A stretch of 32,000 nucleotides of DNA from NCBI GenBank assembly GCA_043808785.1, contig JAZDEL010000003.1, positions 51,237 through 83,236 of the forward strand, given 5' to 3'. This document shows positions 2,899 to 25,316 of this stretch, one piece after another. This stretch comes from Candidatus Iainarchaeum sp. (GTDB taxonomy: Archaea; Iainarchaeota; Iainarchaeia; Iainarchaeales; JAZDEL01). The position numbers were made by a program, and so were the translations under genes. How positions within the stretch are numbered: the first letter of the stretch is position 1; each line of letters opens with the position of its first letter. The notes under the pieces are model-generated. The model had not been told where the DNA came from and made no database searches. It was given only the letters and a program-made list of their open reading frames with translations.

Positions 2899-2919
2899 GC
2901 TTATCACTCAAAATGCCTC

Positions 2920-2946
2920 AAAAAGCGGAATTTGGGGGATTTCCGC
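2920..2946 (-). terminator. Hairpin GCGGAA..TTCCGC plus T5 just upstream of the DUF106 gene
   Basis: The minus strand reads GCGGAAATCCCCCAAATTCCGC TTTTT. A TTTATAA box lies at 2960-2966 just upstream. Its role (terminator, pause site or 5' UTR hairpin) is unresolved. Confidence 0.35.
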
Positions 2947-3005
2947 ACTTTTTCTGCACTTATAAACTTCCCCAGCAATAACCTTATTAAGGTTCATTTT
3001 GCGCC

Positions 3006-3079
3006 ATTCCGTAGGCGCGCGAATTGGCTGCTGCCAATTGCGCCCGTTTTGGCCGCCCCAAAACAGGGCAATCCGGAAT
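3006..3079 (+). repeat. Y-shaped nested inverted-repeat element, copy 1 (intergenic)
   Basis: The outer stem is attccg 3006-3011 / cggaat 3074-3079. Hairpin 3017-3043 is gcgc-g-aattggc tgct gccaatt gcgc. Hairpin 3046-3064 is gttttgg ccgcc ccaaaac. It has the same architecture as 13163-13242 read on the opposite strand, with identical arms GCGCGAATTGG and ATTGCGCCC. Confidence 0.7.
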
Positions 3080-3137
3080 ATGTGGGCTGTTTTCAACAGC
3101 CCGGTAATATTTTGTGTCAAATTTCCCGCCATTGCAT

Positions 3138-4583
3138 TCACCCAAACAACTTGCCCAGCATGGGGTGCATATCCATAAGCTGCGCCCTTGCAAGTTCCTC
3201 ATAAAGCCTGTAAACAATCCCCACTGTCAGAAGTATTCCAGTTCCCGAGCCCAATGCGCCAGTGAGGTCCGCGAACCCCGCAAGCAGGGCAACGAACGCG
3301 GAACCAAGAACACTTATCGGCGGTATGTACCTGTCGAGCACGCCCCTCACAATGCGCGGGTCGCGCCTGAACCCGGGGATATGCATGCCCGCCCTGTTCA
3401 GCTGGTTAGCAACAGCCTCGGAACCCTGGCCGCCCATCTCAACCCAGAACTTTCCGAACACAACACAGACAATAACAAGGATTATTATGTAAAGGAACGC
3501 GTGGATCAGGCTGCCGCCGATTCCTATGAAACTCAATGACACAATGCTCTGCGCCATTTCCCCGATTGTTGTCCCCGCGAATCCGATAATTCCCGAAAAC
3601 CCGGCGCCAAGCGCGCTTCCGAACTGTATTATTATATTCTCGACGAGGCTGTAAGGCGGAATCACGATAGTCCCTATCTTATCCAGCACCGCGCCTACGA
3701 TCGGCAAATCCTTGCCCAATGTCGCCCACATCCTCACGTTTGCGAAAAGTGCGACGGCAAGTATCACGGGAATGTTCGAAACATAAAGGAACTTGACCGG
3801 GAACCTGCCCCCTGTTCCGCGCCTGCCCATTGTTATCGGTATATTGACATGCATGCCTTCCGCAAAAACAACCACAAAGAAAACCACGAGAGTGAAGAAA
3901 ACAGGGAGCAGGTAAATCATCGCATTAAGGAGGTTCTGCGTAACCTCGCTCATGAACAGCCAGAGCAGGCCCTGCCCGCCGAAAAACACGAGTTCCTGCG
4001 CTATATTGAACGGGTTGAACATGCGCCAGATCACGACTTCTGAAACCCCGCCCGCGATGAACAGCCCTATTCCCGAGCCTATGCCGTACTTGCTCACGAC
4101 CTCATCCATGTACATGAGCACTATTGCCCCGAGCGCAACCTGAAGTATCACGAATGGCAGCATCCCCGCCTCCGCGCTCAGGAAGCCGCTCATAACGTAA
4201 ACGCCCGCCTCGAAGAAGCAGAGCACTATTGCGAACAGTTTCTGCAGTGCGGTGAACCTTGCCTTGTCCTTCGGCTGCGAGAGGTCGATATTGAGTATTT
4301 TTCCCCCGACAAGCAATTGCAGTATGATCGAGGCAAGCACAATCGGGCCTATCCCTACTGTGAGTATCGTGCCTATCTTGCTTGCAAGTATTACCTGCAA
4401 TTGTTCGAGCTGCCCCGCGGATGAGGCGTTAAGCCCTATTACCGCAATGTTCCCCATTATGAAGAACAGCATCAGCACAGCGCCGGTCCAGATAAGCCTG
4501 CGCTGCAAGGTAGGCTTTGTCTCCGGTACTTTCACTTCCGGAAGCAGTTTGTAGACGGGCTCGAAAATGTCAAGGACATTCAT
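3138..4583 (-). CDS. secY: Preprotein translocase subunit SecY
   Basis: 481 aa and polytopic. MNVLDIFEPVYKLLPEVKVPETKPTLQRRLIWTGAVL is a typical archaeal SecY N-terminus. ATGA overlap with the rpl15 stop. Confidence 0.95.
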   Translation of the reverse strand: MNVLDIFEPVYKLLPEVKVPETKPTLQRRLIWTGAVLMLFFIMGNIAVIGLNASSAGQLEQLQVILASKIGTILTVGIGPIVLASIILQLLVGGKILNIDLSQPKDKARFTALQKLFAIVLCFFEAGVYVMSGFLSAEAGMLPFVILQVALGAIVLMYMDEVVSKYGIGSGIGLFIAGGVSEVVIWRMFNPFNIAQELVFFGGQGLLWLFMSEVTQNLLNAMIYLLPVFFTLVVFFVVVFAEGMHVNIPITMGRRGTGGRFPVKFLYVSNIPVILAVALFANVRMWATLGKDLPIVGAVLDKIGTIVIPPYSLVENIIIQFGSALGAGFSGIIGFAGTTIGEMAQSIVSLSFIGIGGSLIHAFLYIIILVIVCVVFGKFWVEMGGQGSEAVANQLNRAGMHIPGFRRDPRIVRGVLDRYIPPISVLGSAFVALLAGFADLTGALGSGTGILLTVGIVYRLYEELARAQLMDMHPMLGKLFG

Positions 4584-5159: not shown

Positions 5160-5627
5160 TTAAGCCATTTTCACTATCAGTTTATTTATTTCTTTTCCCC
5201 TGTATCCTAGCACGCCCCCCTCGGCGTAGCCCTTCTTTATCCCCGCCCTTTCGAAGCCCTTGCTTGGCGGGTTAAGCCTGAACACCGGTTTTATCCCGAA
5301 ATCCGCAAGCTTCTTTTTCCCAGAGAGCACAAGTTTTGCGATTTCCTCCGCGCCCTTAACCTTGTGCTTTGCGTAAAATGCGGAGTCAAGCCTCTTATTC
5401 CCCACAACGCGCCCGCGTTTCGCTATCACGTGCGCAAGTGCAGCCTCGCCGATTTCGCCGTATGTCAGGTAATCCCTTGACTTCTTAATCATGCCTTTTG
5501 CCGTGCCGTTCTCGGGCAGGAGCACCATATGGTTTGCCCTGTGCAGCCTGAGCAGTTCGAGCGTGTCCCTGATTTCCCACTTCACGTCGACCTCTCCCCT
5601 GACCCTTATTGCAGCATACATCGTCAT
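5160..5627 (-). CDS. rpl30: 50S ribosomal protein L30 (uL30)
   Basis: MTMYAAIRVRGEVDVKWEIRDTLELLRLHRANHMVL is the archaeal uL30 pattern. ATG at 5627 (5630 is GTG). Confidence 0.92.
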   Translation of the reverse strand: MTMYAAIRVRGEVDVKWEIRDTLELLRLHRANHMVLLPENGTAKGMIKKSRDYLTYGEIGEAALAHVIAKRGRVVGNKRLDSAFYAKHKVKGAEEIAKLVLSGKKKLADFGIKPVFRLNPPSKGFERAGIKKGYAEGGVLGYRGKEINKLIVKMA

Positions 5628-6380: not shown

Positions 6381-6889
6381 TTACCACCATATTTTTTTTC
6401 TATCGCATCCTTAACCGCAATGAACTGCTTTGCCGCGTCCTCCGAAATATGCTTCCCCGAAAACCTGTCTGCCGAAGGGAAAACCTTTTCGTCGCACTTT
6501 ATTTTCATCCCCGAATCTACCGCCCCCTTGAGCGCCGCAAACACCCTCGAGCCGTGCACCGGCGTGCTCAGCCCTATATCAAGTATCGCCTCCGCGGGCC
6601 CCTTTTTTCCGGCCTTTTTGCAGCAGAGGAACGCGGCAAGATATGCGGCAGGCAAATTGCCGCAGTGCATCTTCCAGCCGAACTCCTTCAATTCGCGGGA
6701 GTTTGCCGCGGAAACCATAACATCGCCCTTCTCCTCAAACCTCACAATCTGCACAATAGTGCTGTTGTTGGATTTCCTCACAACAAGCCTGTGCTTCCCC
6801 GACTTGAGCTGCGCAAGCCTCTTCGTGTAATCCGTCTTCTCCTCCCTTCTCCTCCTGAATGCCGGCTCGTATGTGGAAGTGTGGCTCAT
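6377..6889 (-). CDS. rpl18: 50S ribosomal protein L18 (uL18)
   Basis: 170 aa: FRRRREEKTDYTKRLAQLKSGKHRLVVRKSNNSTIVQIV is the uL18 pattern. Confidence 0.93.
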   Translation of the reverse strand: MSHTSTYEPAFRRRREEKTDYTKRLAQLKSGKHRLVVRKSNNSTIVQIVRFEEKGDVMVSAANSRELKEFGWKMHCGNLPAAYLAAFLCCKKAGKKGPAEAILDIGLSTPVHGSRVFAALKGAVDSGMKIKCDEKVFPSADRFSGKHISEDAAKQFIAVKDAIEKKYGGK

Positions 6890-7326
6890 TTTCCGCCCCC
6901 CCTTACATATGCCTCAAGGTATTTCTTTCCCCTGAAATAATTTCCCTTAACCATCTTGTACACCGTGCTGTAGGGCTTCTCCATTTTTACCCCGCCCTTC
7001 TTCAGTTCCGCAAGCATCTTCCTCTGCGCCCTTACGTTCCTTACCCACACGGACTTGCTCTGCATTCTCGCCTTCTTCGTCCCTGCCCTCTTTCCGTAGC
7101 CGCGCTTCCTGCCCTTCTTCCTTTTGGTGTGCATTGCCTTTGCCCTGCCCCTGCTCATGCCGATGAGCCTTTTCTTTTTTATAAGCCCGTCGGCAATCAG
7201 CGCCCTTACGTCCTCCTTTGTCATGCACTCCGCAATCTTAACGCTCTCCGCGGGGTTGAACCGCACCCGCGTTTCCCCGACTTTAAGTATGCGTGCTGCA
7301 AGCCTTCTTACCTTGTACAGTTCCAT
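6886..7326 (-). CDS. rpl19e: 50S ribosomal protein L19e (eL19)
   Basis: 146 aa: MELYKVRRLAARILKVGETRVRFNPAE...RGRAKAMHTKRKKGRKRGYGKRAGTKKAR is the eL19 pattern. Confidence 0.93.
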   Translation of the reverse strand: MELYKVRRLAARILKVGETRVRFNPAESVKIAECMTKEDVRALIADGLIKKKRLIGMSRGRAKAMHTKRKKGRKRGYGKRAGTKKARMQSKSVWVRNVRAQRKMLAELKKGGVKMEKPYSTVYKMVKGNYFRGKKYLEAYVRGGGK

Positions 7327-7428
7327 AACATCACAACCTTCAACAACTTTTCAAACAACAAACAAACCCCGCAAACCGTCGTTCGCGTTTTTTGGTTTTT
7401 TCTTTTTTTGTTTTTTCAGCCTTCGGTT

Positions 7429-8217
7429 TCAGGGGTTAACAATTCTCAAACCGAGTTTCTGCGCCTCCTCGAGCATCATCCTTTTCTTTTTCCTGCCGAT
7501 TTTCCCCGCAATCCTCACCGCCTTGTCCCTCCCCGCGGCCTTTATTTCCGCAAGGTTCCCCACAAGGACTTCCATATACCCCGAGGGGTGCATATGCCTT
7601 ATTTTCACGGGCGTCCTGTAACCCGGCTGGGGCAGCATTCCGTCCTCCTGCCTGCAGTGCATGTCTATGCCGCGGGGCGCGCGCCACCTGTTCCACTTCG
7701 CCTTGCTCGGAACCCTGAGCCAGCGCTTGCCGAACCTTCCCCTGAATGCGGGCTTCCACTTTTCGCTTATCGCCTCCGCGTTCCTCTTCGCCTCCTCGCT
7801 CTTCGGCTGTTTCTTAATCTCAATCCTTCCGAATTTCTTCCTGCGTTCGGCGCGCCTTTTTTCGTTCTCCTCGCGCGTTTTTGCGGATTCCTTCCCCGCT
7901 GTTTTTTTCTTCTCCGCTTCAGCCGGCTTTTTCCCCGCTTCAGATGTTTTTTCCGCGGGCTTTCCGCCATCGGCCTTTTTCTCCGCCTGCTTTCCCGTGT
8001 GCGCATCCGCGGATTTTTTCTTCTCCGTTTCGGCGGGCTTTTTTTCAGCCACGGCGGGCTTCTTCTCTGCAGCGGTTTCCGCGCGCGTTTGCGCCCGCGC
8101 GTCACGCGTGCCGCTTGCAGCGGCACTAGCCTGCACTTCGGCTTCTTTGCCCGCGGGCTTGCCCTTCTTCCCTTCCGCGCCCTTGCCTAATTTTCTCCCG
8201 TAAACTTTTTCAGCCAT
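7429..8217 (-). CDS. rpl32e: 50S ribosomal protein L32e (eL32) with a ~150-aa Lys/Ala/Glu N-terminal extension
   Basis: The C-terminal ~110 aa, KPAFRGRFGKRWLRVPSKAKWNRWRAPRGIDMHCR...GYRTPVKIRHMHPSGYMEVLV, is the eL32 core. First ATG at 8217 (8223 is TTG). The head is KKPAVAEKKPAETEKKK-type low complexity. Confidence 0.9.
   Translation of the reverse strand: MAEKVYGRKLGKGAEGKKGKPAGKEAEVQASAAASGTRDARAQTRAETAAEKKPAVAEKKPAETEKKKSADAHTGKQAEKKADGGKPAEKTSEAGKKPAEAEKKKTAGKESAKTREENEKRRAERRKKFGRIEIKKQPKSEEAKRNAEAISEKWKPAFRGRFGKRWLRVPSKAKWNRWRAPRGIDMHCRQEDGMLPQPGYRTPVKIRHMHPSGYMEVLVGNLAEIKAAGRDKAVRIAGKIGRKKKRMMLEEAQKLGLRIVNP
8083..8136. repeat. Segment in the rpl32e head homologous to the flanks of the rps3 insert
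   Basis: The exact 18-mer gcgcgtttgcgcccgcgc occurs at 8083-8100 and 13128-13145. The exact 14-mer gcactagcctgcac occurs at 8123-8136 and 13273-13286. The spacing is 22 nt here and 127 nt in rps3. The encoded peptides are VQASAAA...ARAQTR in both genes. Confidence 0.8.
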
Positions 8218-9379: not shown

Positions 9380-9538
9380 TCAGTCGTATTTCCTGAATCC
9401 TATTTTTTCCGCAATGTCCTTGAAGCATCTCCTGCAAATGAACAGGCTGTACTTGCTTATCAGCCCGCGCCTTGTGCCGCATCTCCTGCAGCCGCCCTTC
9501 TTGTCGAACTTCTTTTCCTCTTTCCCCTCGGAATTCAT
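9380..9538 (-). CDS. rps14: 30S ribosomal protein S14 type Z (uS14), 52 aa
   Basis: Too short for the ORF track. Hand translation from ATG 9538 gives MNSEGKEEKKFDKKGGCRRCGTRRGLISKYSLFICRRCFKDIAEKIGFRKYD, with stop TGA at 9382-9380. It has the CxxC...CxxC zinc motif. ATGA overlap with the rpl5 stop. It sits in the expected L5-S14-S8 slot. Confidence 0.9.
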   Translation of the reverse strand: MNSEGKEEKKFDKKGGCRRCGTRRGLISKYSLFICRRCFKDIAEKIGFRKYD

Positions 9539-10056
9539 TTCACATCAGCCCCGAACTTTTGCTTTACAAAATCTATGGCATCACTTTTGGCTATCCTGTG
9601 CGCAACCGGTATTTTCTTTTTCGCCAGTTTCCTGCGCTTCAGCCTGTAGCCCGGCCTTTTGAGCGTTACAAGCACGTCAAATCCCCTTATTCCGAGCCTC
9701 GGGTCATATCTCACGTCCGGCATGTCAATGTACTCCTTTATCCCGAACCCGAAGTTCCCGCTGTTGTCGAAGTTCCTCGCCTGAAGCACGTTGTCCTTTG
9801 CCGAGAGCGCCCTCCTGAGAAAATCATCCGCCTTCTTTTTCCTGAGCGTAACCTTGAGCCCTATGTTCAGGCCCTCCCTTATGCCCCATGTGGGCTGCCT
9901 GACCCTGCATTTGGTGCGCATCGGCTTTGCGCCCGTAATGGTTTGCATTATCACAGCAGCCTTCTCAAGCTCTTCCCCAGGCTGCCCCACACCCATGTTC
10001 ACCGTGACCTTCTCTATGGCAACATTGCGCATTGCATTTCCCGCTTCCATAACCAT
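9535..10056 (-). CDS. rpl5: 50S ribosomal protein L5 (uL5)
   Basis: 173 aa: NAMRNVAIEKVTVNMGVGQPGEELEKA...GNFGFGIKEYIDMPDVRYDPRLGIRGFDV is the uL5 pattern. AGGTGA Shine-Dalgarno 7 nt upstream. Confidence 0.95.
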   Translation of the reverse strand: MVMEAGNAMRNVAIEKVTVNMGVGQPGEELEKAAVIMQTITGAKPMRTKCRVRQPTWGIREGLNIGLKVTLRKKKADDFLRRALSAKDNVLQARNFDNSGNFGFGIKEYIDMPDVRYDPRLGIRGFDVLVTLKRPGYRLKRRKLAKKKIPVAHRIAKSDAIDFVKQKFGADVK

Positions 10057-10110
10057 TCACCTTTTTTCAAAAAATTTCCCTTTACTCTGCACCCTTGCCC
10101 CGCCCCCGAA

Positions 10111-10848
10111 TCATTCCTTCTTCACTGCCTCTCCGAGCTCTATTCCCGCCTGCTTCTCGCCTATTACGAAAACGTTCTTTTCCGCCGTGCCGAACTCCGA
10201 GCCCTTTGCCTCAAGGCTCACAAGTTTTCCCCTTGCCATTGTCCCCTCTACAACCTTTGTTATCTTCGCGATTACGCCAGTGTGTGTTCCGCCCGTTATG
10301 TATGCGGTATTCCCCTCCTTCATGGAGTAAATTCCCGAGATTTTGTTTTCCGGCATCTCGAGTTTTATGCTGTCCCCGACCTTTGCGTCGTGCTTTCCAG
10401 CGAGCAGGGTTATTCCGCTGCTCGTGTGCAGCTGCACCTTGCCGCCCTTTACATTGCCCTTGCCCGTGACCTTTGCAATTCCCTCGAGCTTTCCCTTTGC
10501 GTTGATTTCCCCGAGCACAATCCTCCTCTTCCCGTCGAACATCACCCTGTAGCGCTTGTTCGAGGATTTGAGTTCGACAATATCGAACAGCCCGACAGCG
10601 AAGCCGTGGCTCTTCCTGACCTTGCCGTTTATTTTCATCTCACCTTTGTTGAGTATCATCTTTGCCTCGCCCAGCGTCCTGCAAACCCCGAGAATTTCCC
10701 TGAGAACAAACCCTGCCGGCACGGAACTCGCCTTGCTGTGCGGCCCGGCCCTTACCCTTATCGCCCAGACCGAGGACTTCCTCGGCAGGAACCTTGCCTT
10801 CGCCACAGAGAGCCTCTTCTGCCCCTTGCTTTCCCCTTTTCTTGCCAT
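10111..10848 (-). CDS. rps4e: 30S ribosomal protein S4e (eS4)
   Basis: 245 aa: KGQKRLSVAKARFLPRKSSVWAIRVRAGPH...GFAVGLFDIVEL...KVQLHTSSG is the eS4 S4/KOW arrangement. Confidence 0.93.
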   Translation of the reverse strand: MARKGESKGQKRLSVAKARFLPRKSSVWAIRVRAGPHSKASSVPAGFVLREILGVCRTLGEAKMILNKGEMKINGKVRKSHGFAVGLFDIVELKSSNKRYRVMFDGKRRIVLGEINAKGKLEGIAKVTGKGNVKGGKVQLHTSSGITLLAGKHDAKVGDSIKLEMPENKISGIYSMKEGNTAYITGGTHTGVIAKITKVVEGTMARGKLVSLEAKGSEFGTAEKNVFVIGEKQAGIELGEAVKKE

Positions 10849-11288
10849 TATTTCACCCTTGTGCTTTTGCCCTTATCTGCAGAACCCTTAACTTCCGCAG
10901 CCGTTGTGTTTTGGCTTTCGCCCTTTCCCCTAACCTCTCCCCTTCCCTTAACCCTCTTGTCGTCGCTCCTGTCAATCTCGACAATCATAACCTTGCTCGC
11001 GTTTATCGGTACCAGCCTCTCCGTGCCGTCGGCCTTTTTCCTCGCGAGCTTCTCTATGAACACGCGCTTCTTCTGGCTGTCGAACTTCGTTATCTTTCCG
11101 CCGAACCCCCTGTTCTTTCCGCGCATTACCTTAACCTTGTCCCCCTTCCTCAAAGTGAGCGAGCGCCTGCCCAGGGATTTGCGCAGTTCCTTCGAAAGGT
11201 TTGCGCTGAAATCCTTGCCGCGCGCGTGCATGGGCCTTGTGAAAAGCGCCTTCCTCTGCACCTTGGGTTTCTTGCTTTTCGTTTTCAT
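10848..11288 (-). CDS. rpl24: 50S ribosomal protein L24 (uL24)
   Basis: 146 aa: RSLTLRKGDKVKVMRGKNRGFGGKITKFDSQKKRVFIE is the KOW motif of uL24. Lys/Gly-rich C-terminal ~30 aa. Confidence 0.92.
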   Translation of the reverse strand: MKTKSKKPKVQRKALFTRPMHARGKDFSANLSKELRKSLGRRSLTLRKGDKVKVMRGKNRGFGGKITKFDSQKKRVFIEKLARKKADGTERLVPINASKVMIVEIDRSDDKRVKGRGEVRGKGESQNTTAAEVKGSADKGKSTRVK

Positions 11289-11300
11289 TTTGGTTCACCA

Positions 11301-11699
11301 TTAAACAACCGCGGAAGCGATGCCGGCAATCTTCGGCCACCTTTCCCCGACTTCCTTCGCAACAACTCCCTTCACTTCCGATGCCTTCGGCAGGCCCTTG
11401 TCATCGACAAGCACCGCGGCATTGTCCTCGAAGCACACGCGCATCCCGTTCGCGCGCCTGTATTCCTTCTTAATCCTCACTATAACCGCTTTCTCGACCT
11501 TTTTCCTTATCTCAGGTTTTCCCTTCTTCACCACGACAACAATCATGTCCGCAATCCCCGCCATGGGCCCCATCCTCTTCCTGCTTTTGTGGTGCAGCAC
11601 GGCAATGAGCTCGAGCTCCTTCGCGCCGGAGTTGTCCGTGCAGAAGAGCCTGCTCTTCTTCGTGAGCACCCTGCATACTGAAGCGTTAATTGCCTTCAT
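11301..11699 (-). CDS. rpl14: 50S ribosomal protein L14 (uL14)
   Basis: The track ORF 11301..11825 reads back into rps17. ATG at 11699 gives MKAINASVCRVLTKKSRLFCTDNSGAKELELIAVL..., the uL14 pattern, 132 aa. It shares one nt with the rps17 stop. Confidence 0.93.
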   Translation of the reverse strand: MKAINASVCRVLTKKSRLFCTDNSGAKELELIAVLHHKSRKRMGPMAGIADMIVVVVKKGKPEIRKKVEKAVIVRIKKEYRRANGMRVCFEDNAAVLVDDKGLPKASEVKGVVAKEVGERWPKIAGIASAVV

Positions 11700-12461: not shown

Positions 12462-12761
12462 TCATGCGTCAATAAACTCTTCCTTATACCCTTCCTGCAG
12501 CAAAATCTTTTTCACATCCCTTTTATGGTCCCCCTGCAGTTCGATTCCGTTTTCCGTCACAGTGCCTCCGCACGCCAGCTTCCTTTTCAGGGCCTTTCCG
12601 AGTTCCTTCGCGTTTGCATCGCTGTCAAACCCCGAGACCGTGGTTACGAACTTGCCGAAGCGCCTCCTTATAACCTTCACCTTTATCTTCTGGCTCTCCT
12701 TAGCGATCTCGCCGCAGACGCACAGGTTCTTCGGCAGGCCGCATTTTTCGCACATGTCCAT
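12462..12761 (-). CDS. sui1: Translation initiation factor SUI1 (aSUI1/eIF1)
   Basis: 99 aa: CGLPKNLCVCGEIAKESQKIKVKVIRRRFGKFVTTVSGFD...LKRKLACGGTVTENGIELQGDHKRDVKKIL is the SUI1 domain. Confidence 0.92.
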   Translation of the reverse strand: MDMCEKCGLPKNLCVCGEIAKESQKIKVKVIRRRFGKFVTTVSGFDSDANAKELGKALKRKLACGGTVTENGIELQGDHKRDVKKILLQEGYKEEFIDA

Positions 12762-12796
12762 TTGCCGCTATTCACCCCTCCAAGTTTCCGTTTTTT

Positions 12797-13063
12797 TTAT
12801 TTTCCCTTTTCCTTAGCCTGTTCCGCTTTCGCCGCTGTGTTTCCGCCCTTCTTCTTCACATTTATTCCCATCTTTTTTTCCTTCAATATCGTAAGTATCC
12901 TTGCGACCATCCTGCGCATGTTCCTGGCTTTTGCCGGCTTCTCCGCACGCGTGCCGGATGCCGCAAGCGCCCTCTCTTTCGCTATGTCCGCGCGAAGGCC
13001 AACGAGCCTTGCCTCGAGTTCCTCGCCCGCAAGGTCGCGCAGTTCGTCAATCTTCCTCGGCAT
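12797..13063 (-). CDS. rpl29: 50S ribosomal protein L29 (uL29)
   Basis: 88 aa: IDELRDLAGEELEARLVGLRADIAKERA...ARNMRRMVARILTILKEK is the uL29 pattern. Lys-rich C-terminal ~22 aa. Confidence 0.9.
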   Translation of the reverse strand: MPRKIDELRDLAGEELEARLVGLRADIAKERALAASGTRAEKPAKARNMRRMVARILTILKEKKMGINVKKKGGNTAAKAEQAKEKGK

Positions 13064-13064
13064 T

Positions 13065-14156
13065 TCACTTCACCTTTTCCGCGGTTTCGGCCTTATCTTC
13101 CGCCTTTTCTTTTTCCGCAGCTTCCTTGCGCGTTTGCGCCCGCGCATGACGCATGCTGCCTCGCGATTCTGCCTTCCCGATTTGAAGCTTCGCTTCAAAT
13201 GGGCGCAATCGGGCATTGCCCAATTCGCGCGGCAGAATGCGCGCATTCGGCTCAAGCCGAACAGCGGCGGCAGCACTAGCCTGCACGTTGTCCTTCCCCC
13301 CGTGCTTTTTCACGTTCTCCTTTTTTTTATCTGCCGAAGCGCCATCTTTTTTCTCCGCCTTCTTTTCGCCTGCGCCGTGCTTCTTTGCCGCCTTCTTGGC
13401 TTCCTTCTCCGCAGCCTCTTTGGCCTCTTCCTTTGCCTTCTTCGCTTCCTCGGCAGCGGTTTCCTCCGCCTCCTTGAGCGATGCGGCCTCGCTTGCCGCC
13501 TTTTCCGCGGCCTCCGCAGCGGCGGACTTCGCCTTCTCAACCGCCTCGTCCCTGTCGTTAAGGATTTTGATAACGTCAATCTTATCGGGGAACGCCGTGT
13601 CCGGCCTCACAATCCTGACCTTTATCCCTATCGCGCCGACTTTCGGGTAAGCCGCGCTCTTTGCATAATCCACAAGCCTTGTCTGCTCGCCGACCTTTTT
13701 CATATAGCCTTCCGCAATGCGCTGGCTTTTCTTCCTCCCGCCCTTGCCCGCGAGTTTCCCCGAAACAACAATCTCAACGCCCTGCGCACCCGCAGCCATT
13801 ATATCCCTAACCGACCTGTAACCCACGCTCCTCCAGGAGAAGCCCCTCTCTATAAGCGCCTTCATCCTGTTCGCCATTGCCATTGCATCGAGTTCCGGCT
13901 TTGTTATTTCCTTAATCTCGATCTGCGGGTTCTCTATGCCGAAGCGCTTGTGTATTGTTTCCGTGAGCTGCTTTATGTTTGCGCCGCTCTTCCCTATCGC
14001 AAGCCCGGGCTTTGTGACGTTCACGATTATCCTCGTCACCATGGGCGTCTTCTCTATCTCGGATTTTGTGAACCCCGCGCGGTCGAGTTCGACCTTGAGG
14101 TACTCCTCGAGCTCCAGCCTTTTGAGGCCCTGTTCTATGAAATGCCTTTCTATCAT
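13065..14156 (-). CDS. rps3: 30S ribosomal protein S3 (uS3) with a ~160-aa C-terminal extension
   Basis: The N-terminal 200 aa is the uS3 KH plus C-terminal domain (TRIIVNVTKPGLAIGKSGANIKQL...GVEIVVSGKLAGKGGRKKSQRIAEGYMKKVG). The tail (nt 13068-13556) is AEKAASEAASLKEAEETAAEEAKKAKEEAKEAAEKEAKK... It includes the structured in-frame insert at 13146-13272. Confidence 0.93.
   Translation of the reverse strand: MIERHFIEQGLKRLELEEYLKVELDRAGFTKSEIEKTPMVTRIIVNVTKPGLAIGKSGANIKQLTETIHKRFGIENPQIEIKEITKPELDAMAMANRMKALIERGFSWRSVGYRSVRDIMAAGAQGVEIVVSGKLAGKGGRKKSQRIAEGYMKKVGEQTRLVDYAKSAAYPKVGAIGIKVRIVRPDTAFPDKIDVIKILNDRDEAVEKAKSAAAEAAEKAASEAASLKEAEETAAEEAKKAKEEAKEAAEKEAKKAAKKHGAGEKKAEKKDGASADKKKENVKKHGGKDNVQASAAAAVRLEPNARILPRELGNARLRPFEAKLQIGKAESRGSMRHARAQTRKEAAEKEKAEDKAETAEKVK
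13163..13242 (-). repeat. Y-shaped nested inverted-repeat element, copy 2 (in frame inside the rps3 tail)
   Basis: On the minus strand the outer stem is GCG-C-ATTCTGCC (13242-13231) / GGCAGAATCGC (13173-13163). Hairpin GCGC-G-AAT T GGGC AAT GCCC G ATTGCGC is at 13230-13203. Hairpin ATTTGAAGC GAA GCTTCAAAT is at 13200-13180. An extra hairpin TTCGGC TTGA GCCGAA lies at 13261-13246. A closing pair GCTGCC/GGCAGC lies at 13274-13269 / 13160-13155. Confidence 0.7.
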
Positions 14157-14162
14157 CGTAAA

Positions 14163-14633
14163 TCACTTCATTTCCCTTGCGAAAATCTCGAGGTGCGCGG
14201 ATTTCCTCTTTCTCCTTTTCCCGGCAATCCTCCCCTGCTTCTGGTAGCTTGCCCTTGCGAAGCCCTGCGAGGCGAACGCGTGCGTTATTATAAGGTTCTT
14301 GCCGTCCATCCCCTTGTAATCCGCGTTAGCCTTCACGCTCTCCAGCAGGGTTATGAAAATCTCGACAGTTCCGTGCGCGTACTTTCCCGTTTTTGTCCCG
14401 CTCACAGCCCTCCCTTTCCTGTGCGGCATTTTCCTCACGTATTTCTTGAGAGGTATGTGCTCCTTGTGCTCGAGTATGTTCCTCATGAACTGCAGCGCCC
14501 TCTCGAGCCTCATGCCCTTTATCTCGCGCATCAACTCTACGGAGTATTTCAGCGAGGCGCGCTGGTTCGCCATGCGCGCGCTTGCGAGCTTATGCTTCCT
14601 CCTTGCCTCTATCTGGTAATCTCTCTTGACCAT
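14163..14633 (-). CDS. rpl22: 50S ribosomal protein L22 (uL22)
   Basis: 156 aa: ASLKYSVELMREIKGMRLERALQFMRNILEHKEHIPLKKY...HLEIFAREM is the archaeal uL22 pattern. Confidence 0.92.
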   Translation of the reverse strand: MVKRDYQIEARRKHKLASARMANQRASLKYSVELMREIKGMRLERALQFMRNILEHKEHIPLKKYVRKMPHRKGRAVSGTKTGKYAHGTVEIFITLLESVKANADYKGMDGKNLIITHAFASQGFARASYQKQGRIAGKRRKRKSAHLEIFAREMK

Positions 14634-14660
14634 TTTTCATCCCTCGCTTTTGCCGCCTTT

Positions 14661-15065
14661 TCAGCCCCTCGCCGTGATTGCAGTGCTCGACTTTGTCGCG
14701 CCTATGCCCGCCTTTCCGTGCGTCAGCCTCTTCCTTGTGAGCGCGAACTCGCCGAGATAATGCCCTATCATGTTTTCCTTGACGTCAAGTATCTGGAACT
14801 CGTTCCCCTTGTGCACGGCAAACTGCAGCCCAATCATCTGCGGGATAACTATCAAATCGCGCCTGTGCGTCTTTATGGGCTTAACCCTTCCGCCCTTCTG
14901 CATCTGCACCCTTGCCATCTCCATTTTCTTCAGCACCTTCTTGTCGAAGCCGCGCAGCACGCTCCTCCTCCCGCGCGAGTCCAGCAGTTTAGCGAACCCC
15001 GCAAGGTCGAGCGTGAGCAGCTGCTCAAGCGCCTTTCCCCTGTATGAAAAATCTTTTTTTGCCAT
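14661..15065 (-). CDS. rps19: 30S ribosomal protein S19 (uS19)
   Basis: ATG at 15065 (15077 is TTG). MAKKDFSYRGKALEQLL...IKTHRRDLIVIPQMIGLQFAVHKGNEFQILDVKENMIGHYLGEFALTRK is the uS19 pattern. Confidence 0.93.
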   Translation of the reverse strand: MAKKDFSYRGKALEQLLTLDLAGFAKLLDSRGRRSVLRGFDKKVLKKMEMARVQMQKGGRVKPIKTHRRDLIVIPQMIGLQFAVHKGNEFQILDVKENMIGHYLGEFALTRKRLTHGKAGIGATKSSTAITARG

Positions 15066-18950: not shown

Positions 18951-21125
18951 TTAATGCGTGTTGCCCGAGCCGCACGCCTTCGGTTCGCACTTATGTTTAG
19001 GCATTGAAACCCTTCTTCCCGAGGTTGCCCTGTAAACCATCCAGAGCATTGTGAGGATAAGCACAACAAGCCCGATATTGACCGCGTTCCCGTTCAGCAC
19101 GGCGAATGCCGTCCCCGCAAGCCCTGTGAAGCTGGTTCCGTTCCCCGAACCCGCACCGGAACCCGCGTTGCTGTTTTGGTTCCCGCTTCCCGAACCATTA
19201 TCGCCGTTGCCCGAACCCGAACCGTTATCCGAACCCGCGTTGCTGTTTTGGTTCCCGTTGCCGTAACCCGAACCGTTGTTGTTTTCGTTTTCATTCTCTT
19301 CCTCGGCAGGCCAGTAACCGTTCTCCCCTTCCACAACGCGCGTGTATTTTTCGATTATGGTTTCGCCGTTAACCTCTACCCTGTAAACAACAAACCCTGT
19401 TTCGCGCCCGAGGTTGCTTATCCTCACAACCTTTTCCGCGTAGGTTTGCCGTGGGATGTTGATGGTTTGGGGGAAAACATCAACACCCTCACCAGCAAGT
19501 GTAATTATGGCTGCGGAATCGAAAGGGTTGTCTATTTTCAGTTCAATGTAACCAATGCCGCCCCTTGAATTGTCTATCTCCGCCTGTTCGGGAAAATTAA
19601 AACCAAACCCTGCCGCGCTAAAGTTCGCGGCTGCGTTTGTTTTGTTATTTTTGCCCCCTTTCATGTAAACCTGCACAGCGTTGCTTTTTATTGCGCAGCT
19701 TATGCCCGAACTGAAATGCCCGTTTGCGGTTATGTAAATTGTTCCAGTGTCATCCGCCTTTGCCTCGTTTGCGTAAGTCCAGAACCCTGTGCGGGCGCGC
19801 TCGCCCTTGAGAACAACAGAATCCTTCACATATCCCGAAGCGGAGAACTCTGTTGCATATTCCTCAACCTGCACGGAATCAACATAAAAATTCAGCGCTG
19901 AATTATTTTTCAGGTAAATCTCCGCGTACGCGCTCTCCCCGGCATCGACGCTTACCCCCGCGCGGTTTTCGAAACCGAGTGAGTAGCAATTGCCTTTGGG
20001 AGTGTAGGTGCCGGTGCCGCTGCCTTTGCTCTGCGAAGCACCGGTGCTGTATTCGCCTGTACTCACACTCACATCCTTCCATGAATTATCGCCCGCGTTT
20101 TTGGGTTCGTATGAGGAAGCACTGTACGCGTACTCATAATCTCCGCTCTTCTCCGCAGGCTTATCCTTTGCCTTGCCGCTAACGTGTATCGTGAACTCCG
20201 CTGCCCTAATATCCCCGAGCGAGCAGTTTGTTCCGTCCGTGAACACGCCGCTTACCTTGACATTCGCGCTTATGTCCGCGCTCGACGCGGTGCCGATTGC
20301 CTCGAGCCTTACCTTGATTTCCCTCGTGCTTCCGCTCGGCACAAGTGAATCGTAATCCTTCCCTGTCTCGGTTACATCGAACCCTCCGATGTAAACCGAA
20401 ACGTTCTTTATCGTGAAATTCTTTTTTGAATTATTTTTCACATAAACGGTTGCGTAACCCTTCTCCCCTGCCGTTATGTAGAAATCATCCGCACTCAGCG
20501 CCATCTCGGTGCAGTAAGCGCCCTGCGGATACTTGTAATCGTACCCTGTATATTCCCCGTAACCGACACTGCGCCCCGAACCATATCCTCCGCCGTAACT
20601 TACAGTGTATGTGGGGCCGTAATATGCCGTCCCGCCGCTGTATGCTCCGCTGTAATACCCCCTGTCCGCAGGCCAGTAGTATGCGTTCCCGTAATACACA
20701 TACCCGTAATCGCCAACCCAGTTAGGGTAATAATTCCAGTTCCCGCCCCAGTAGTAATAATTTGGCGCGTAGTAGGGCGAGTAATAATATCCGTAACTCT
20801 CCCCGTACCAGTACCTCTGCCCGTAATAAACAGGCGTGTCCCTGTACCAGTACCTGTTCCCTCCGTAATACCAGCCCGGTTCGTAATTGTAATAATTGCC
20901 CGAGTAATAAACCCTGTAGGGTGTGTCAAAATAGTAATAATTTCCGTAGTGGTATGCGTAATACGGTTCCGAATACGCGCTCCAGTGCCCGCCCGAGAAT
21001 ACCTCTACAGACCAATCATTGTTGTAATATCCGAATGCCCATCCCGCGCTCACGCCTGTTGCAATGAAAAGCAGGGCCAGGCCTGCGAGCGCAATTTTGC
21101 AGAAAATCCCCCAATTGCGGTTCAT
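18951..21125 (-). CDS. Anchored surface protein
   Basis: Domain order: signal peptide, 173-aa Tyr/Gly/Asn-rich region, two Cys-bracketed beta-sandwich-like domains, NPxD domain, Gly/Ser/Asn linker, C-terminal TM anchor. First ATG at 21125 (the track start at 21146 is GTG and abuts the TATA box). MNRNWGIFCKIALAGLALLFIATGVSAG is the signal or anchor. The C-terminus is TGLAGTAFAVLNGNAVNIGLVVLILTMLWMVYR followed by a basic tail. I recognise no family by eye. Confidence 0.8.
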   Translation of the reverse strand: MNRNWGIFCKIALAGLALLFIATGVSAGWAFGYYNNDWSVEVFSGGHWSAYSEPYYAYHYGNYYYFDTPYRVYYSGNYYNYEPGWYYGGNRYWYRDTPVYYGQRYWYGESYGYYYSPYYAPNYYYWGGNWNYYPNWVGDYGYVYYGNAYYWPADRGYYSGAYSGGTAYYGPTYTVSYGGGYGSGRSVGYGEYTGYDYKYPQGAYCTEMALSADDFYITAGEKGYATVYVKNNSKKNFTIKNVSVYIGGFDVTETGKDYDSLVPSGSTREIKVRLEAIGTASSADISANVKVSGVFTDGTNCSLGDIRAAEFTIHVSGKAKDKPAEKSGDYEYAYSASSYEPKNAGDNSWKDVSVSTGEYSTGASQSKGSGTGTYTPKGNCYSLGFENRAGVSVDAGESAYAEIYLKNNSALNFYVDSVQVEEYATEFSASGYVKDSVVLKGERARTGFWTYANEAKADDTGTIYITANGHFSSGISCAIKSNAVQVYMKGGKNNKTNAAANFSAAGFGFNFPEQAEIDNSRGGIGYIELKIDNPFDSAAIITLAGEGVDVFPQTINIPRQTYAEKVVRISNLGRETGFVVYRVEVNGETIIEKYTRVVEGENGYWPAEEENENENNNGSGYGNGNQNSNAGSDNGSGSGNGDNGSGSGNQNSNAGSGAGSGNGTSFTGLAGTAFAVLNGNAVNIGLVVLILTMLWMVYRATSGRRVSMPKHKCEPKACGSGNTH

Positions 21126-21147
21126 ATAATAACTTCTGCCGAACACC

Positions 21148-22056: not shown

Positions 22057-25000
22057 CTACTTCCTCGCCTGGATGTAGAGAATCATCCCGACAAGGATTA
22101 TTATGATCACAACAAGCCCGAGCACAACCGCATTCTCGGATAGCATTGCAAGCCCGGTTGCTATGAAGTCCTGCTGTGCAGGCTCCTCAATCGTGAGCGT
22201 GAGCGCCCTCTCGAGGTGCTTTCCCCCACCCTCCACAATCATTTTCCCAGTGAACGTGCCAGTTCCCTTGGGCTTGACGCTTGCGGACAGCGAAACACTG
22301 TCTCCCGCGGCAATGGTCTTGGTGCCGCCCGTTATTTCCCAATCCTCGGGGAAACCTTCAAGCGAGAACTTAACCTCGACGCTGCCTGCAGACTCGTTTG
22401 TAACCGTAACCGCGACATTTCCGCTGTCGCCTATGCTCATGCTTGTGGGGAAACTGCCAACGCTTATTTCAGTGGCTTCCTCCTCGTTGCCCTCCCCAGC
22501 ACCCTGCCCGCTGTTGAATGTTATCTTGGTTGTCCTGTTGCCTATATTGCACCCTGAAATTTCCGTGCTGTAAATAACATATGCAACATCGCGGTCGGAA
22601 GTTATGTCAATGCTCTTCGTGGTTGTGCTGTTCCTCCCCACAGTGAAAGAATCCTGGCTTATTGTGAGCCCCGCCCCCGAAAGCGTTATCTCAGCTCCCT
22701 TATCCAGCGGGTTTGTCACAGTGAACTGTATTGTGCCCGAGTTTCCGCTGAACGCGACCTCGTTGGGTACGGTGAGCGTGAAATCCGTGCAATCGTTGCC
22801 TGTTCCGCTGCCGTTATCGCTGCCGCCGTTATCGTAGCGGTCCTTTACCTTAACGCCGAAGTCCTCGTAGAGGCCGCTGAAGTAGCAGTAATCCCCGTTG
22901 GAGAGCCTGCCGCTTACCTTGAGCCTTGCCTTCCCCGTGCTTGTCGAGGAAACGCCGCTTCCGAAGAACTTAACCCTTATCTCCTTCCTGTTTCCGCTGT
23001 AAATGTAATCCCCGCCGTAATCATCAACGCTCGGGTAAATATTCGCGCTGAAGGAGCCGTAGAGCTTCGCTATTTCAACATCACTTATCGTGAACCTGCT
23101 GCCAGAGTTGTTCCTCACATAGAAGCTTTCAATCGTGCTCCCGTCCTCGTAAACCTCGACTGTGTGAGTGTCAAGGTAAATGTTGTGGCAGTTCGCGCTT
23201 TCCGAGCTTGTGCCCGTGTTCATTACCTTTATGCTCGTGCTCTCGTAAATATCCCGGTAATTGCAGTATGCGTTGCCGCTGAAGTGCCCCCTTGCCCTGA
23301 GCGTGAGCGTGCCCCAGGTTGTCGAGGAAACGCTGTCCGCGTCTATTTCAACCTCGACCGTGATGTAATCGCCGTCATAGATTGTCCTGCCGGAATAATC
23401 CGAAGAATCCAAAACCCTTGCATCAAACTTAGAGCCGCTTGTTTCGTAGGCCTCAACGCCCTCAAGGTAGAATGTCCTGCCCGAGTTGTTCCCGAGGCGG
23501 TAAGTGAATGTGTCGGTTGTGCCTTCCTTGATTTCCTTTGTGCCCGTAACCCACTCTATCTGGTTGCACTCGCTGTTTGAATAATCATAATAATACTCAT
23601 CATTTACCGTGAGAGTGAAACTCTCCGTGCCTATGTCGCCGTAATTGCAGCCCTTTCCGCTTTCCGTGAAATAGCCCGCAACCCTGACGTTAACAGTCCC
23701 TGATTCTGTTCCGCTTACGTTGTAAGTGTCCACGTTTACGTTGAAATATCCCGTTTCCCCGGCGCCTATGTACGTGTCGTACCCGCCCGCCGTAGCGTTA
23801 AAGTACGGGTTGCTTTCCGTAACCTCAATCCCCCTGACCCCGAACCCTTCGCCGCTGTTGTTCTTTATATAGAACTGCAGGGTTTCGTTGTCCCTGCTTT
23901 CCTCAAGTGTCCTGCCCCCTACCTGAATATCTATGTTGCCGCACTGCGGGTAGTCAGGATAGCTGGCTGTGTCATAGACGGTAACATAAAAGTACTTTGC
24001 GGGGATGCTGCCCGTGCAGTTTCCGCTGACATTAACCTTTGCGCGGCCTTTGCTTGTGCCGCTTACGGAATCTCCGCTTACCGTGACGTCAAACGATTTT
24101 GTGCTGCCTGCCGGCACGCTAAGCGTGCTGCCGTAGCCGGAGACCGAGAAGCTGCCGTACTCCCTCGAAACGCTTATGCCGGCATTGAACGCCTTGCTGC
24201 CGCTGTTGGTTATGCTGAACGTGCGCGACTGCGTGCTGCCCTCGTTTATGTAAAAATCCTGAGTCGAGACGCTTATGTCCCCGCAGCCGAGGTATGCCGG
24301 AGGCGCGCCCTTGTCCTTGGCCGTAACGCTGAATTTCGCGTATCCTATGTCCCTGTAATCGCAGATTACTCCCGCGCCGTCGAAGCGGCCCTTAACCATG
24401 GCATAGCTGTGGATTATGGTCTCGTTGTCCACATTGCCCGCGGTAACGTAAAAATCAACCGTTGTGTATCCGCCGTTTGCCGCAACCCTCTTGTTTGCCG
24501 CTGTCTTGTTGGTAAAACTGAGCGGTATAGTGCTGTCGTAATCGTATGCGTACGCATCCTCAATTATGAAATCATAGCCGTTGTTGTTCCTGATGCCGAA
24601 GTACACAGTCCTGCTCGTGCCCTCGTCCATTGAAAAGTCCCCGGGCGTGAGGCTTATGTCCGAGCATTTGGGCGTTGCGGGCTTCTGCTGCCCCTGCGCG
24701 ACATTTGCCGTCAGTATCTTGTATTCGCTGCCGTAACTTACCTGGTTCGCAAACTTAAGGTATATAAAATCCGTGTAATACCCGAATTCCGAGCTTGCCG
24801 CACCGGGCAGGTCGATATTGAACTCCTGGCAACCGTTCACCTTAATGCTCGCGGAAGCCTCCCTGTAGCCGAAATCCTTTTTGGTTCCGTCGGGCCTTAC
24901 GCCGTAGCTCTGCAGTTTTCCGTAAACCGTTTCGTAAAGGTTAGGGGTGCTGCCGTCGGAATCGACGCATACCCTCATTTCAATCGCTGCATAATCGCCG

Positions 25001-25188
25001 TCGCGGAAGGTTACTATGCTGCCTTTCTCGCCCGTGCTCTTGTTCACGAATTTCGCGTCATCGAGCCTTATGCTCAGCCCGCTCGCGGCGTTGGCAATGC
25101 CTGTAAAAACCAGAAGCGCCAGCGCAATAATCCCGAATGCAAAGAGTTTGTTGTTCACGTTATCACTCACAAGTGGTAATATTTTCAC
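22057..25188 (-). CDS. Large anchored surface protein (1043 aa) with six Cys-starting tandem beta-sandwich-like repeats (five of the full NNSG type) plus a CARDB-like domain and a C-terminal TM anchor
   Basis: The hydrophobic signal is NNKLFAFGIIALALLVFTGIANA. Repeats start at C175, C302, C416, C541, C667 and C800. The C-terminus is ATGLAMLSENAVVLGLVVIIIILVGMILYIQARK. There is no ATG at the 5' end. Candidate starts are GTG 25188 (TATA-proximal), 25170 or 25158. Confidence 0.8.
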   Translation of the reverse strand: MKILPLVSDNVNNKLFAFGIIALALLVFTGIANAASGLSIRLDDAKFVNKSTGEKGSIVTFRDGDYAAIEMRVCVDSDGSTPNLYETVYGKLQSYGVRPDGTKKDFGYREASASIKVNGCQEFNIDLPGAASSEFGYYTDFIYLKFANQVSYGSEYKILTANVAQGQQKPATPKCSDISLTPGDFSMDEGTSRTVYFGIRNNNGYDFIIEDAYAYDYDSTIPLSFTNKTAANKRVAANGGYTTVDFYVTAGNVDNETIIHSYAMVKGRFDGAGVICDYRDIGYAKFSVTAKDKGAPPAYLGCGDISVSTQDFYINEGSTQSRTFSITNSGSKAFNAGISVSREYGSFSVSGYGSTLSVPAGSTKSFDVTVSGDSVSGTSKGRAKVNVSGNCTGSIPAKYFYVTVYDTASYPDYPQCGNIDIQVGGRTLEESRDNETLQFYIKNNSGEGFGVRGIEVTESNPYFNATAGGYDTYIGAGETGYFNVNVDTYNVSGTESGTVNVRVAGYFTESGKGCNYGDIGTESFTLTVNDEYYYDYSNSECNQIEWVTGTKEIKEGTTDTFTYRLGNNSGRTFYLEGVEAYETSGSKFDARVLDSSDYSGRTIYDGDYITVEVEIDADSVSSTTWGTLTLRARGHFSGNAYCNYRDIYESTSIKVMNTGTSSESANCHNIYLDTHTVEVYEDGSTIESFYVRNNSGSRFTISDVEIAKLYGSFSANIYPSVDDYGGDYIYSGNRKEIRVKFFGSGVSSTSTGKARLKVSGRLSNGDYCYFSGLYEDFGVKVKDRYDNGGSDNGSGTGNDCTDFTLTVPNEVAFSGNSGTIQFTVTNPLDKGAEITLSGAGLTISQDSFTVGRNSTTTKSIDITSDRDVAYVIYSTEISGCNIGNRTTKITFNSGQGAGEGNEEEATEISVGSFPTSMSIGDSGNVAVTVTNESAGSVEVKFSLEGFPEDWEITGGTKTIAAGDSVSLSASVKPKGTGTFTGKMIVEGGGKHLERALTLTIEEPAQQDFIATGLAMLSENAVVLGLVVIIIILVGMILYIQARK

Positions 25189-25220: not shown

Positions 25221-25271
25221 CCTTTCGTTTTGTTGAGTGAAGGAGTTAATTCGTCAAGTGACGGGGTTAAT

Positions 25272-25284
25272 GCGCGTTTGCGCC
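25272..25284. repeat. GC mini-hairpin motif gcgcgtttgcgcc, third exact copy
   Basis: The same 13-mer occurs at 8083-8095 and 13128-13140. Here it lies in the 3' UTR of the DUF457-like gene and is followed by a second ttgcgcc. Related hairpins are cgcgcaaagcgcg at 18616-18628 and roughly 22007-22018 (ccgcgctttgcgg). Confidence 0.75.
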
Positions 25285-25316
25285 ATTGCGCCACGCCATT
25301 GCCCCCGCCAATAATA

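Follow-up and report, generated by a model that had tools for sequence, protein, structure and literature searches.

The window, by which we mean the whole 32-kb stretch of DNA analysed, carries all of its large ORFs on the minus strand in the ORF listing. Among them are the gene for SecY and, downstream of it, an EMC3/TMCO1-like (DUF106) gene, whose EMC3 assignment was made by Pfam at an E-value of 7.8e-23. The spacer between these two genes holds a 74-nt element, here called Y, in which an outer stem encloses two hairpins, and a 73-nt copy of the same element lies elsewhere in this ribosomal-protein operon, in the part of the S3 gene that encodes the C-terminal tail (Table 1). The earlier note had described the 74-nt spacer element and had likened its three-helix layout to that of the S3 insert, and we confirmed both copies at the positions listed. 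The same note had regarded the 230-nt spacer as unusually large; it does contain the element, but its length is not due to the element alone, as the SecY–EMC3 spacers of relatives measure 82–203 nt without Y. A small perfect hairpin adjoins the spacer copy and is followed on the plus strand by a T-rich run; this hairpin is missing in L065, a locus of the nearest available relative (Logan sample SRR22387960, loci L065 and L110).

Table 1. Positions of the two Y copies, of repeat B and of the surrounding genes and signals in the window.
Feature	Position	Strand	Sequence or remarks
SecY gene	3138-4583	-	
SecY–EMC3/DUF106 spacer	2900/2908-3137		between SecY stop (3138) and EMC3/DUF106 start (ATG 2899 or GTG 2907)
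Y element, spacer copy, 74 nt	3006-3079	+	outer stem ATTCCG/CGGAAT plus two hairpins
Conserved hairpin of spacer copy			GCGCGAATTGG..CCAATTGCGC with bulged G
Variable hairpin of spacer copy			CC-GTTTTGG..CCAAAAC-A-GG
Small perfect hairpin adjoining spacer copy	3084-3102		GGGCTGTT-NNN-AACAGCCC
Window-specific region, net 105 nt relative to L065	3001-3121	-	Y, adjacent small hairpin and short flanks; breakpoints ambiguous
Promoter-proximal block, 93 nt	2908-3000	-	directly downstream of the Y copy
Perfect palindrome, 15 bp	2980-2994		AACCTTAATAAGGTT; within the 2908-3000 block
BRE/TATA-like signal	2960-2966 (TTTATAA box)		GGGAAG-TTTATAA; within the 2908-3000 block
Hairpin plus T5	2920-2951		flanks A5/T5; within the 2908-3000 block
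S3 ORF	13065-14156	-	in-frame translation of Y copy: ILPRELGNARLRPFEAKLQIGKAE
Y element, S3 copy, 73 nt	13166-13238	-	inside C-terminal tail of ribosomal protein S3
105-nt block in S3	13162-13266	-	GTTCGGC-TTGA-GCCGAAT hairpin, then GCGCGC, then Y, then CGCG
Repeat B, 5' part in S3	13267-13286	-	GTGCAGGCTAGTGCTGCCGC; aa VQASAAA
Repeat B, 3' part in S3	13128-13161	-	AGGCAGCATGCGTCATGCGCGGGCGCAAACGCGC; aa GSMRHARAQTR
Repeat B, uninterrupted, 54 nt, GC-rich	8083-8136	-	L32e N-terminal extension; aa VQASAAASGTRDARAQTR

Other parts of the window contain further large minus-strand ORFs of 731, 1043 and 1082 aa (18951-21146, 22057-25188 and 26612-29860), which gave either no match or sub-threshold PKD/Ig-like matches only and may encode surface proteins; an RtcB ligase gene (29944-31374) lies beyond the 1082-aa ORF. 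On the plus strand, very long stop-free antisense ORFs of up to 840 aa (for example 12525-15047, 9472-11304 and 6859-8190) run opposite ribosomal protein genes and are presumably by-products of K/E/A-rich codon usage, not genes.

Between Y and the EMC3 start lies a promoter-proximal block that is probably a conserved promoter, operator or leader. The TTTATAA box (2960-2966, in minus-strand reading) and the hairpin with T5 that the earlier note had pointed out are both found in the sequence and are kept in L065, and the block as a whole is 97.8% identical to L065 (2 differences), compared to 83–87% for the flanking genes. A 77-aa ORF (2908-3141, minus strand) begins with a GTG that overlaps the stop of SecY and spans the spacer exactly, with Y in frame and read antisense; its counterpart in L065 (5127-5255) has 42 aa, and the difference of 35 codons includes Y. 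We rejected this ORF as a real gene and consider it probably spurious. It belongs to no Pfam family, is missing from relative L066, where the spacer is only 82 nt long, and overlaps the BRE/TATA-like signal, the palindrome and the hairpin plus T5. Moreover, the portion that it has in common with L065 shows the 97.8% DNA identity given above against 83–87% in the neighbouring genes, which is the signature of regulatory DNA, and stop-free frames are common in Y in any case, at four to five out of six.

The two Y copies share an identical core of 20 nt. The pattern GCGCGAATTGG-N9/10-ATTGCGCCC occurs twice in the window and not once in 100 dinucleotide-preserving shuffles, a two-copy match far beyond chance. 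Over structurally aligned positions the copies are ~68% identical, and of the 26 base pairs common to both, 19 are identical, six differ by two-sided changes, one differs by a one-sided change (TA to TG) and none is broken. Both copies fold into a three-way junction, with z-scores of −2.1 and −5.2 as RNA and −3.3 and −4.8 as DNA. With the S3 copy as its sole input, a covariance model retrieved the spacer copy with ends at exactly 3006-3079, and scored it at 31.8 bits (E 4.6e-6) on the plus strand compared to 22.2 bits on the minus strand; the higher plus-strand score supports the assignment of opposite orientations to the two copies. The identical arms and compensated stems described in the earlier note are thus borne out by the shared core and the pair tally, and the covariance scores agree with its placing of the copies in opposite directions relative to transcription. 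Its further step, from compensated stems to selection on structure, holds in part: the compensation is real, but selection is not the sole route to compensated palindrome arms in DNA. As terminal inverted repeats, the outer stems amount to 6–8 bp per copy, and only ATTC/GAAT is common to both.

Homologues of SecY place the source of the window among the DPANN archaea, as an organism of the Diapherotrites type. The nearest available relative has a SecY that is 95% identical at the amino-acid level and DNA that is only about 83–87% identical, and is therefore a different species. Y is missing from both orthologous sites in L065/L110 while the adjacent sequence is conserved. Both sites are likewise empty in more distant relatives, a presence/absence difference at orthologous sites of the kind looked for in MITEs: loci L066 and L067 lack the spacer copy, and the S3 proteins P0123-P0126 and P0157 lack the insert. 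At both loci the stretch missing from the nearest relative exceeds Y itself. Across the ~16 kb that could be aligned with this relative there are many indels of ≤35 nt, and the alignment is broken at four places only, namely the two Y loci and two places in the N-terminal extension of L32e; the two Y loci are the largest window-specific gains. On this comparison, a gain in the lineage of the window would be the parsimonious reading; a loss in the relative instead is conceivable, if improbable, given that the two are different species.

Insertion-like segments of other kinds were seen in the relatives. In L067, where SecY is 66% identical, the final 21 nt of the SecY gene with its stop (TTGGAAGGTTGTTAGGATGAA) are perfectly repeated (7206-7324), and between the repeats lies a 77-nt segment that contains two hairpins. 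This arrangement, at the gene junction that holds Y in the window, is the signature of an insertion with target duplication; we rejected this segment as a relative of Y, as its sequence is unrelated and it is not Y-shaped. In L065, about 54–66 extra nt at the EMC3 start (5268-5345) are bracketed by a 12-nt direct repeat, ATGYTYGTGAAC; this segment is not significantly structured, not Y-shaped and unrelated to Y, and was likewise set aside.

In S3, the reading frame runs through Y, and the protein has 363 aa in the window compared to 317 aa in the relative, a difference of 46 codons; the two agree exactly in the last codons and stop of S3 and in the overlapping start of L29. The S3 copy is accordingly an in-frame translated insertion, the property looked for in a Rickettsia palindromic element (RPE), with the caveat that an open frame comes easily to a sequence with so few stop-containing frames (one or two of six). 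The sequences flanking Y in S3 are collinear with a GC-rich repeat, B, which is uninterrupted in the N-terminal extension of L32e, and B runs in the same direction and frame in the two genes. In a long-gap alignment, the S3 and L32e copies of B differ by a single gap of exactly 105 nt (13162-13266), such that the Y block in S3 sits within B, between both arms of the B hairpin. This 105-nt interruption is the same size as the net gain in the spacer (105 nt). Repeat B is missing from both L32e and S3 of the relative, and L065 has 27 unrelated nt at the L32e position. Elsewhere in the window, an intergenic GC-rich hairpin (25262-25310, minus strand; z −3.1) contains GCAATGGCGCAAACGCGC, which equals the 3' part of B at 15 of 18 positions. 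The 1043-aa gene is preceded by a TATA-like box (ggtttataaag), and the hairpin stands ~50 nt upstream of that box. Within the L32e extension there is, in addition, an internal duplication specific to the window (7896-8043, minus strand), with a 37-nt repeat, 86% identical, at a spacing of 111 nt, which explains most of the 39-aa excess of this protein over that of the relative.

Searches for a third copy of Y by blastn-short, by the covariance model with filters off and by fuzzy patterns found none, either in the window or in the 55 kb covered from four relatives (loci L065, L066, L067, L110 and L111). The best candidate (L065 9276-9319, E 0.26) is an unrelated long hairpin and was rejected. 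In the region between rpoD and L18e in L065 (9265-9470), a long imperfect hairpin, CAACCTTTTGGAAGCGAAAC..GTTTCGCGCTCAAAAAGGTTG, is followed by what, judged by eye, resembles an intron-containing tRNA gene; the counterpart of this region falls beyond the limits of the window. Scans for the exact core in 185,579 GTDB species genomes, 241 million JGI metagenome records and IMG/VR gave no archaeal match. They returned 106 loci (64 in GTDB, 41 in JGI metagenomes and 1 in IMG/VR), and we rejected all of these, as the sequences are unrelated and do not show the hairpin layout; the records with names come from bacteria, the contigs from metagenomes and viruses are of similar kind, and several of the matches represent a single conserved gene of Roseobacter, in which the gap is 15 nt. 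Together, B and Y encode a 57-aa peptide, which had no match in a word-indexed protein library or in a library of 1.84 billion representatives, the word-indexed negative being weak as that search missed even the window's own proteins. With respect to the RPE family, neither protein library gave a peptide match. As far as public data go, Y would therefore appear restricted to this lineage.

Compared with each other in every combination of orientations, the flanks of the Y copies gave nothing significant except one match in K/E codons (p = 0.02 among 6 tests), and at the Y ends there is no direct repeat beyond a self-complementary AT that could represent a target-site duplication. A 7-nt AATGGCG repeat brackets a 125-nt span of the spacer, an assignment that conflicts with the homology of AAATTTGA to L065. 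Among the ten window ORFs scanned, Pfam identified no transposase, and no RAYT/TnpA gene was present in the same set. The earlier note's case for a mobile repeat had looked to further copies, shared flanks and target-site duplications, and on these points it gained nothing: the window, the 55 kb of relatives and the public collections yielded no third copy, the flanks are dissimilar and no target-site duplication is unambiguous.

No Rfam family reached its gathering score in the window, and relaxing the threshold to E up to 10 gave chance-level matches only (15.8 bits compared to a cut-off of 70.7). ARAGORN found no tRNA or tmRNA, and tRNA-like, riboswitch and ribozyme readings have no backing from the folds or from Rfam. 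An archaeal bulge-helix-bulge intron is marked by two 3-nt bulges a 4-bp helix apart at the exon–intron junctions; the predicted folds lack this motif, the unspliced S3 frame is intact to the conserved stop, and excision of 73 nt would shift that frame, so we rejected the intron reading. A GCGC-density scan for more GC-rich modules was uninformative.

On balance, we think that Y is probably a palindromic DNA repeat, non-autonomous and restricted to this lineage, that entered two sites after the split from the nearest sampled relative, a judgement that we hold with modest confidence. The earlier note had preferred a DNA-level mobile repeat to an RNA signal. The DNA-level part of this claim is strengthened by the empty orthologous sites, the place of the Y loci among the four alignment breaks and as the largest gains, the copy within a coding sequence and the lack of an Rfam match; mobility we infer, and against it stand the presence of only two copies, the lack of a clear target-site duplication and the dissimilar flanks. 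An unlikely but credible alternative is that Y arose locally, with fold-back or template-switch errors building nested hairpins, ectopic conversion among low-complexity ribosomal protein extensions spreading B and Y, and compensated stems emerging as a by-product of hairpin-templated synthesis or repair. Such an origin would suit the sharing of B between L32e and S3 in one orientation and frame, the window-specific L32e duplication with its 111-nt spacing, and an S3 region made up of nested variants of one 7–8-mer and its complement (GTGCTGCC, GTTCGGC, GCCGAAT, ATTCTGCC, GGCAGAAT and GGCAGCAT). At both loci, one arm of the outer stem resembles sequence at or beside the site: CGGAA is present in the empty site of L065, and in S3 the B stem next to Y, GTGCTGCC/GGCAGCAT, is similar to the outer stem of Y, ATTCTGCC/GGCAGAAT. 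This likeness hints at a local, templated origin for parts of the structure, and the lack of a clear target-site duplication, of a strong terminal repeat and of a transposase among the ten window ORFs points the same way. The spacer copy, however, is non-coding, 10 kb away, inverted and without flank homology to the S3 locus, and thus is not explained by simple conversion between paralogous tails. In addition, a 20-nt core that is identical in copies otherwise ~68% identical argues for constraint on the core, not for one recent copying event.

The same compensation can be read as the mark of a functional RNA, either an mRNA element that acts in cis (on stability, processing or protein binding) or, in the spacer, a plus-strand antisense RNA gene that would start from the near-symmetric TATA box at 2960-2966 and end at the hairpin plus T-run at 3083-3112. 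Six two-sided compensatory pairs with none broken speak for such an RNA, as does the terminator-like hairpin after the spacer copy on the plus strand, and the one-sided change gives T-G on the S3 mRNA-sense strand, where the other strand would have an A-C mismatch. We nevertheless regard this reading as improbable. The copies are oppositely oriented to transcription, both strands fold about equally, one copy lies within a translated region, and no Rfam match appears even at E up to 10. Y is also missing from relatives, the closest as well as more distant ones, while the regulatory block beside it is conserved at 97.8%, and the purine-rich BRE-like side of the TATA box should, from the known archaeal BRE/TATA arrangement, direct transcription to EMC3 and not to Y. 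Still less probable, and in our view very improbable, is that the inner palindrome (10-bp arms GCGCAATTGG/CCAATTGCGC with a spacer of 4–8 bp) is bound as duplex DNA by a dimeric protein and that the remaining fold is incidental. The palindrome is indeed the sole sequence-conserved part, one copy stands ~70 bp upstream of a TATA box, and a loosely similar GC-rich hairpin (25272-25296) lies at a like distance upstream of another TATA-like box. A duplex binding site, however, leaves the compensated outer stem and second hairpin unexplained, does not account for a second copy deep in a coding tail, and is at odds with the absence of Y from a relative in which the promoter block is conserved.

If Y is an inserted palindromic DNA repeat, a short non-coding sequence would have inserted twice, each time after the lineage split. 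The spacer insertion would do little harm, being directly upstream of the conserved SecY–EMC3 promoter block and not within it, and the S3 insertion would also be little harmful, as it adds whole codons to a disordered K/E/A-rich tail and would simply be translated. The invariant inner hairpin (GCGCGAATTGG..CCRATTGCGC, with a bulged G) may be recognised by a trans-acting enzyme, by analogy with REP/RAYT and IS200/IS605, and the other two helices might need only to pair, whatever their sequence. A need for pairing alone in those helices would lead to stems that are compensated yet divergent and to indifference to the direction of transcription. The copies differ by ~32% although both post-date a nucleotide divergence of ~14% from the relative, which suggests that they derive from diverged source copies, that is, from a family, and we infer that further copies of Y exist.

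More speculatively, and with clear doubt on our part, Y (perhaps as a ~105-nt unit with the small hairpin) could belong to a family of mobile elements, so far undescribed and recognised by their hairpins, in a Diapherotrites lineage. Its members would enter expressed genes, those for ribosomal proteins among them, by whole codons and in both orientations, as an archaeal counterpart of RPEs, and they would nest (Y inside B) and so help to build the long lineage-specific ribosomal protein extensions of DPANN archaea. Were such a family real, selfish palindromic DNA would be written into archaeal ribosomal proteins and operon spacers, and there would be a concrete mechanism for the growth of long, fast-evolving DPANN ribosomal protein tails. 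In genomes of this kind, a three-helix fold with compensated stems is not necessarily an RNA gene; presence or absence in a near relative was what decided the matter here. For now, Y is a two-copy, lineage-specific curiosity whose importance hinges on its genome-wide copy number.

DPANN archaea have reduced genomes and depend on a host, and in both respects the organism that carries Y resembles the hosts of RPEs. In-frame palindromic insertions have been documented for the RPEs of Rickettsia (PMC10969869). Like Y, RPEs are short palindromic repeats that insert in whole codons, add an extra translated peptide and also occur in intergenic positions (PMC10969869). The two have no sequence relationship and reside in bacterial and archaeal hosts, respectively. 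RPEs measure ~100–150 bp and form several families with dozens of copies per genome, compared to the two Y copies seen in the 32-kb window, and Y, unlike RPEs, forms a three-way junction with one invariant inner hairpin. DPANN genomes are also reported to be dense in MITEs (PMC11602168). MITEs and Y are both small and non-coding, have fold-back inverted-repeat ends and differ in presence and absence among related genomes. Y departs from MITEs in that its terminal repeats are only 6–8 bp long, with ATTC/GAAT alone in common, its conserved part is internal, it has no clear target-site duplication, and the ten window ORFs scanned include neither a related insertion sequence nor a transposase.

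With REP/BIME–RAYT systems and the PATEs derived from IS200/IS605, Y would have in common a recognition that rests on an imperfect hairpin with an extrahelical base, and these elements produce no target duplication, nor does Y show a clear one. The stems of REPs, too, are compensated across copies. REPs, however, are extragenic, 20–40 nt long, very numerous and equipped with a conserved 5' tetranucleotide, whereas one Y copy lies in the coding sequence of S3 and the copies have no common flanking tetra- or pentanucleotide. The flip/flop ITRs of parvoviruses resemble Y in that an outer palindrome encloses two small internal palindromes, and the inner part of Y occurs, as in flip and flop, in both orientations relative to the small hairpin and to transcription. 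This resemblance is architectural only, as the Y copies are 74-nt insertions within the chromosome and not replicon ends, with no Rep gene nearby. Y has no sequence similarity to any of these families, and the likeness that we see would be one of behaviour; on that footing, we rate Y broadly as a putative short interspersed palindromic repeat, most like RPEs and the MITE/REP elements.
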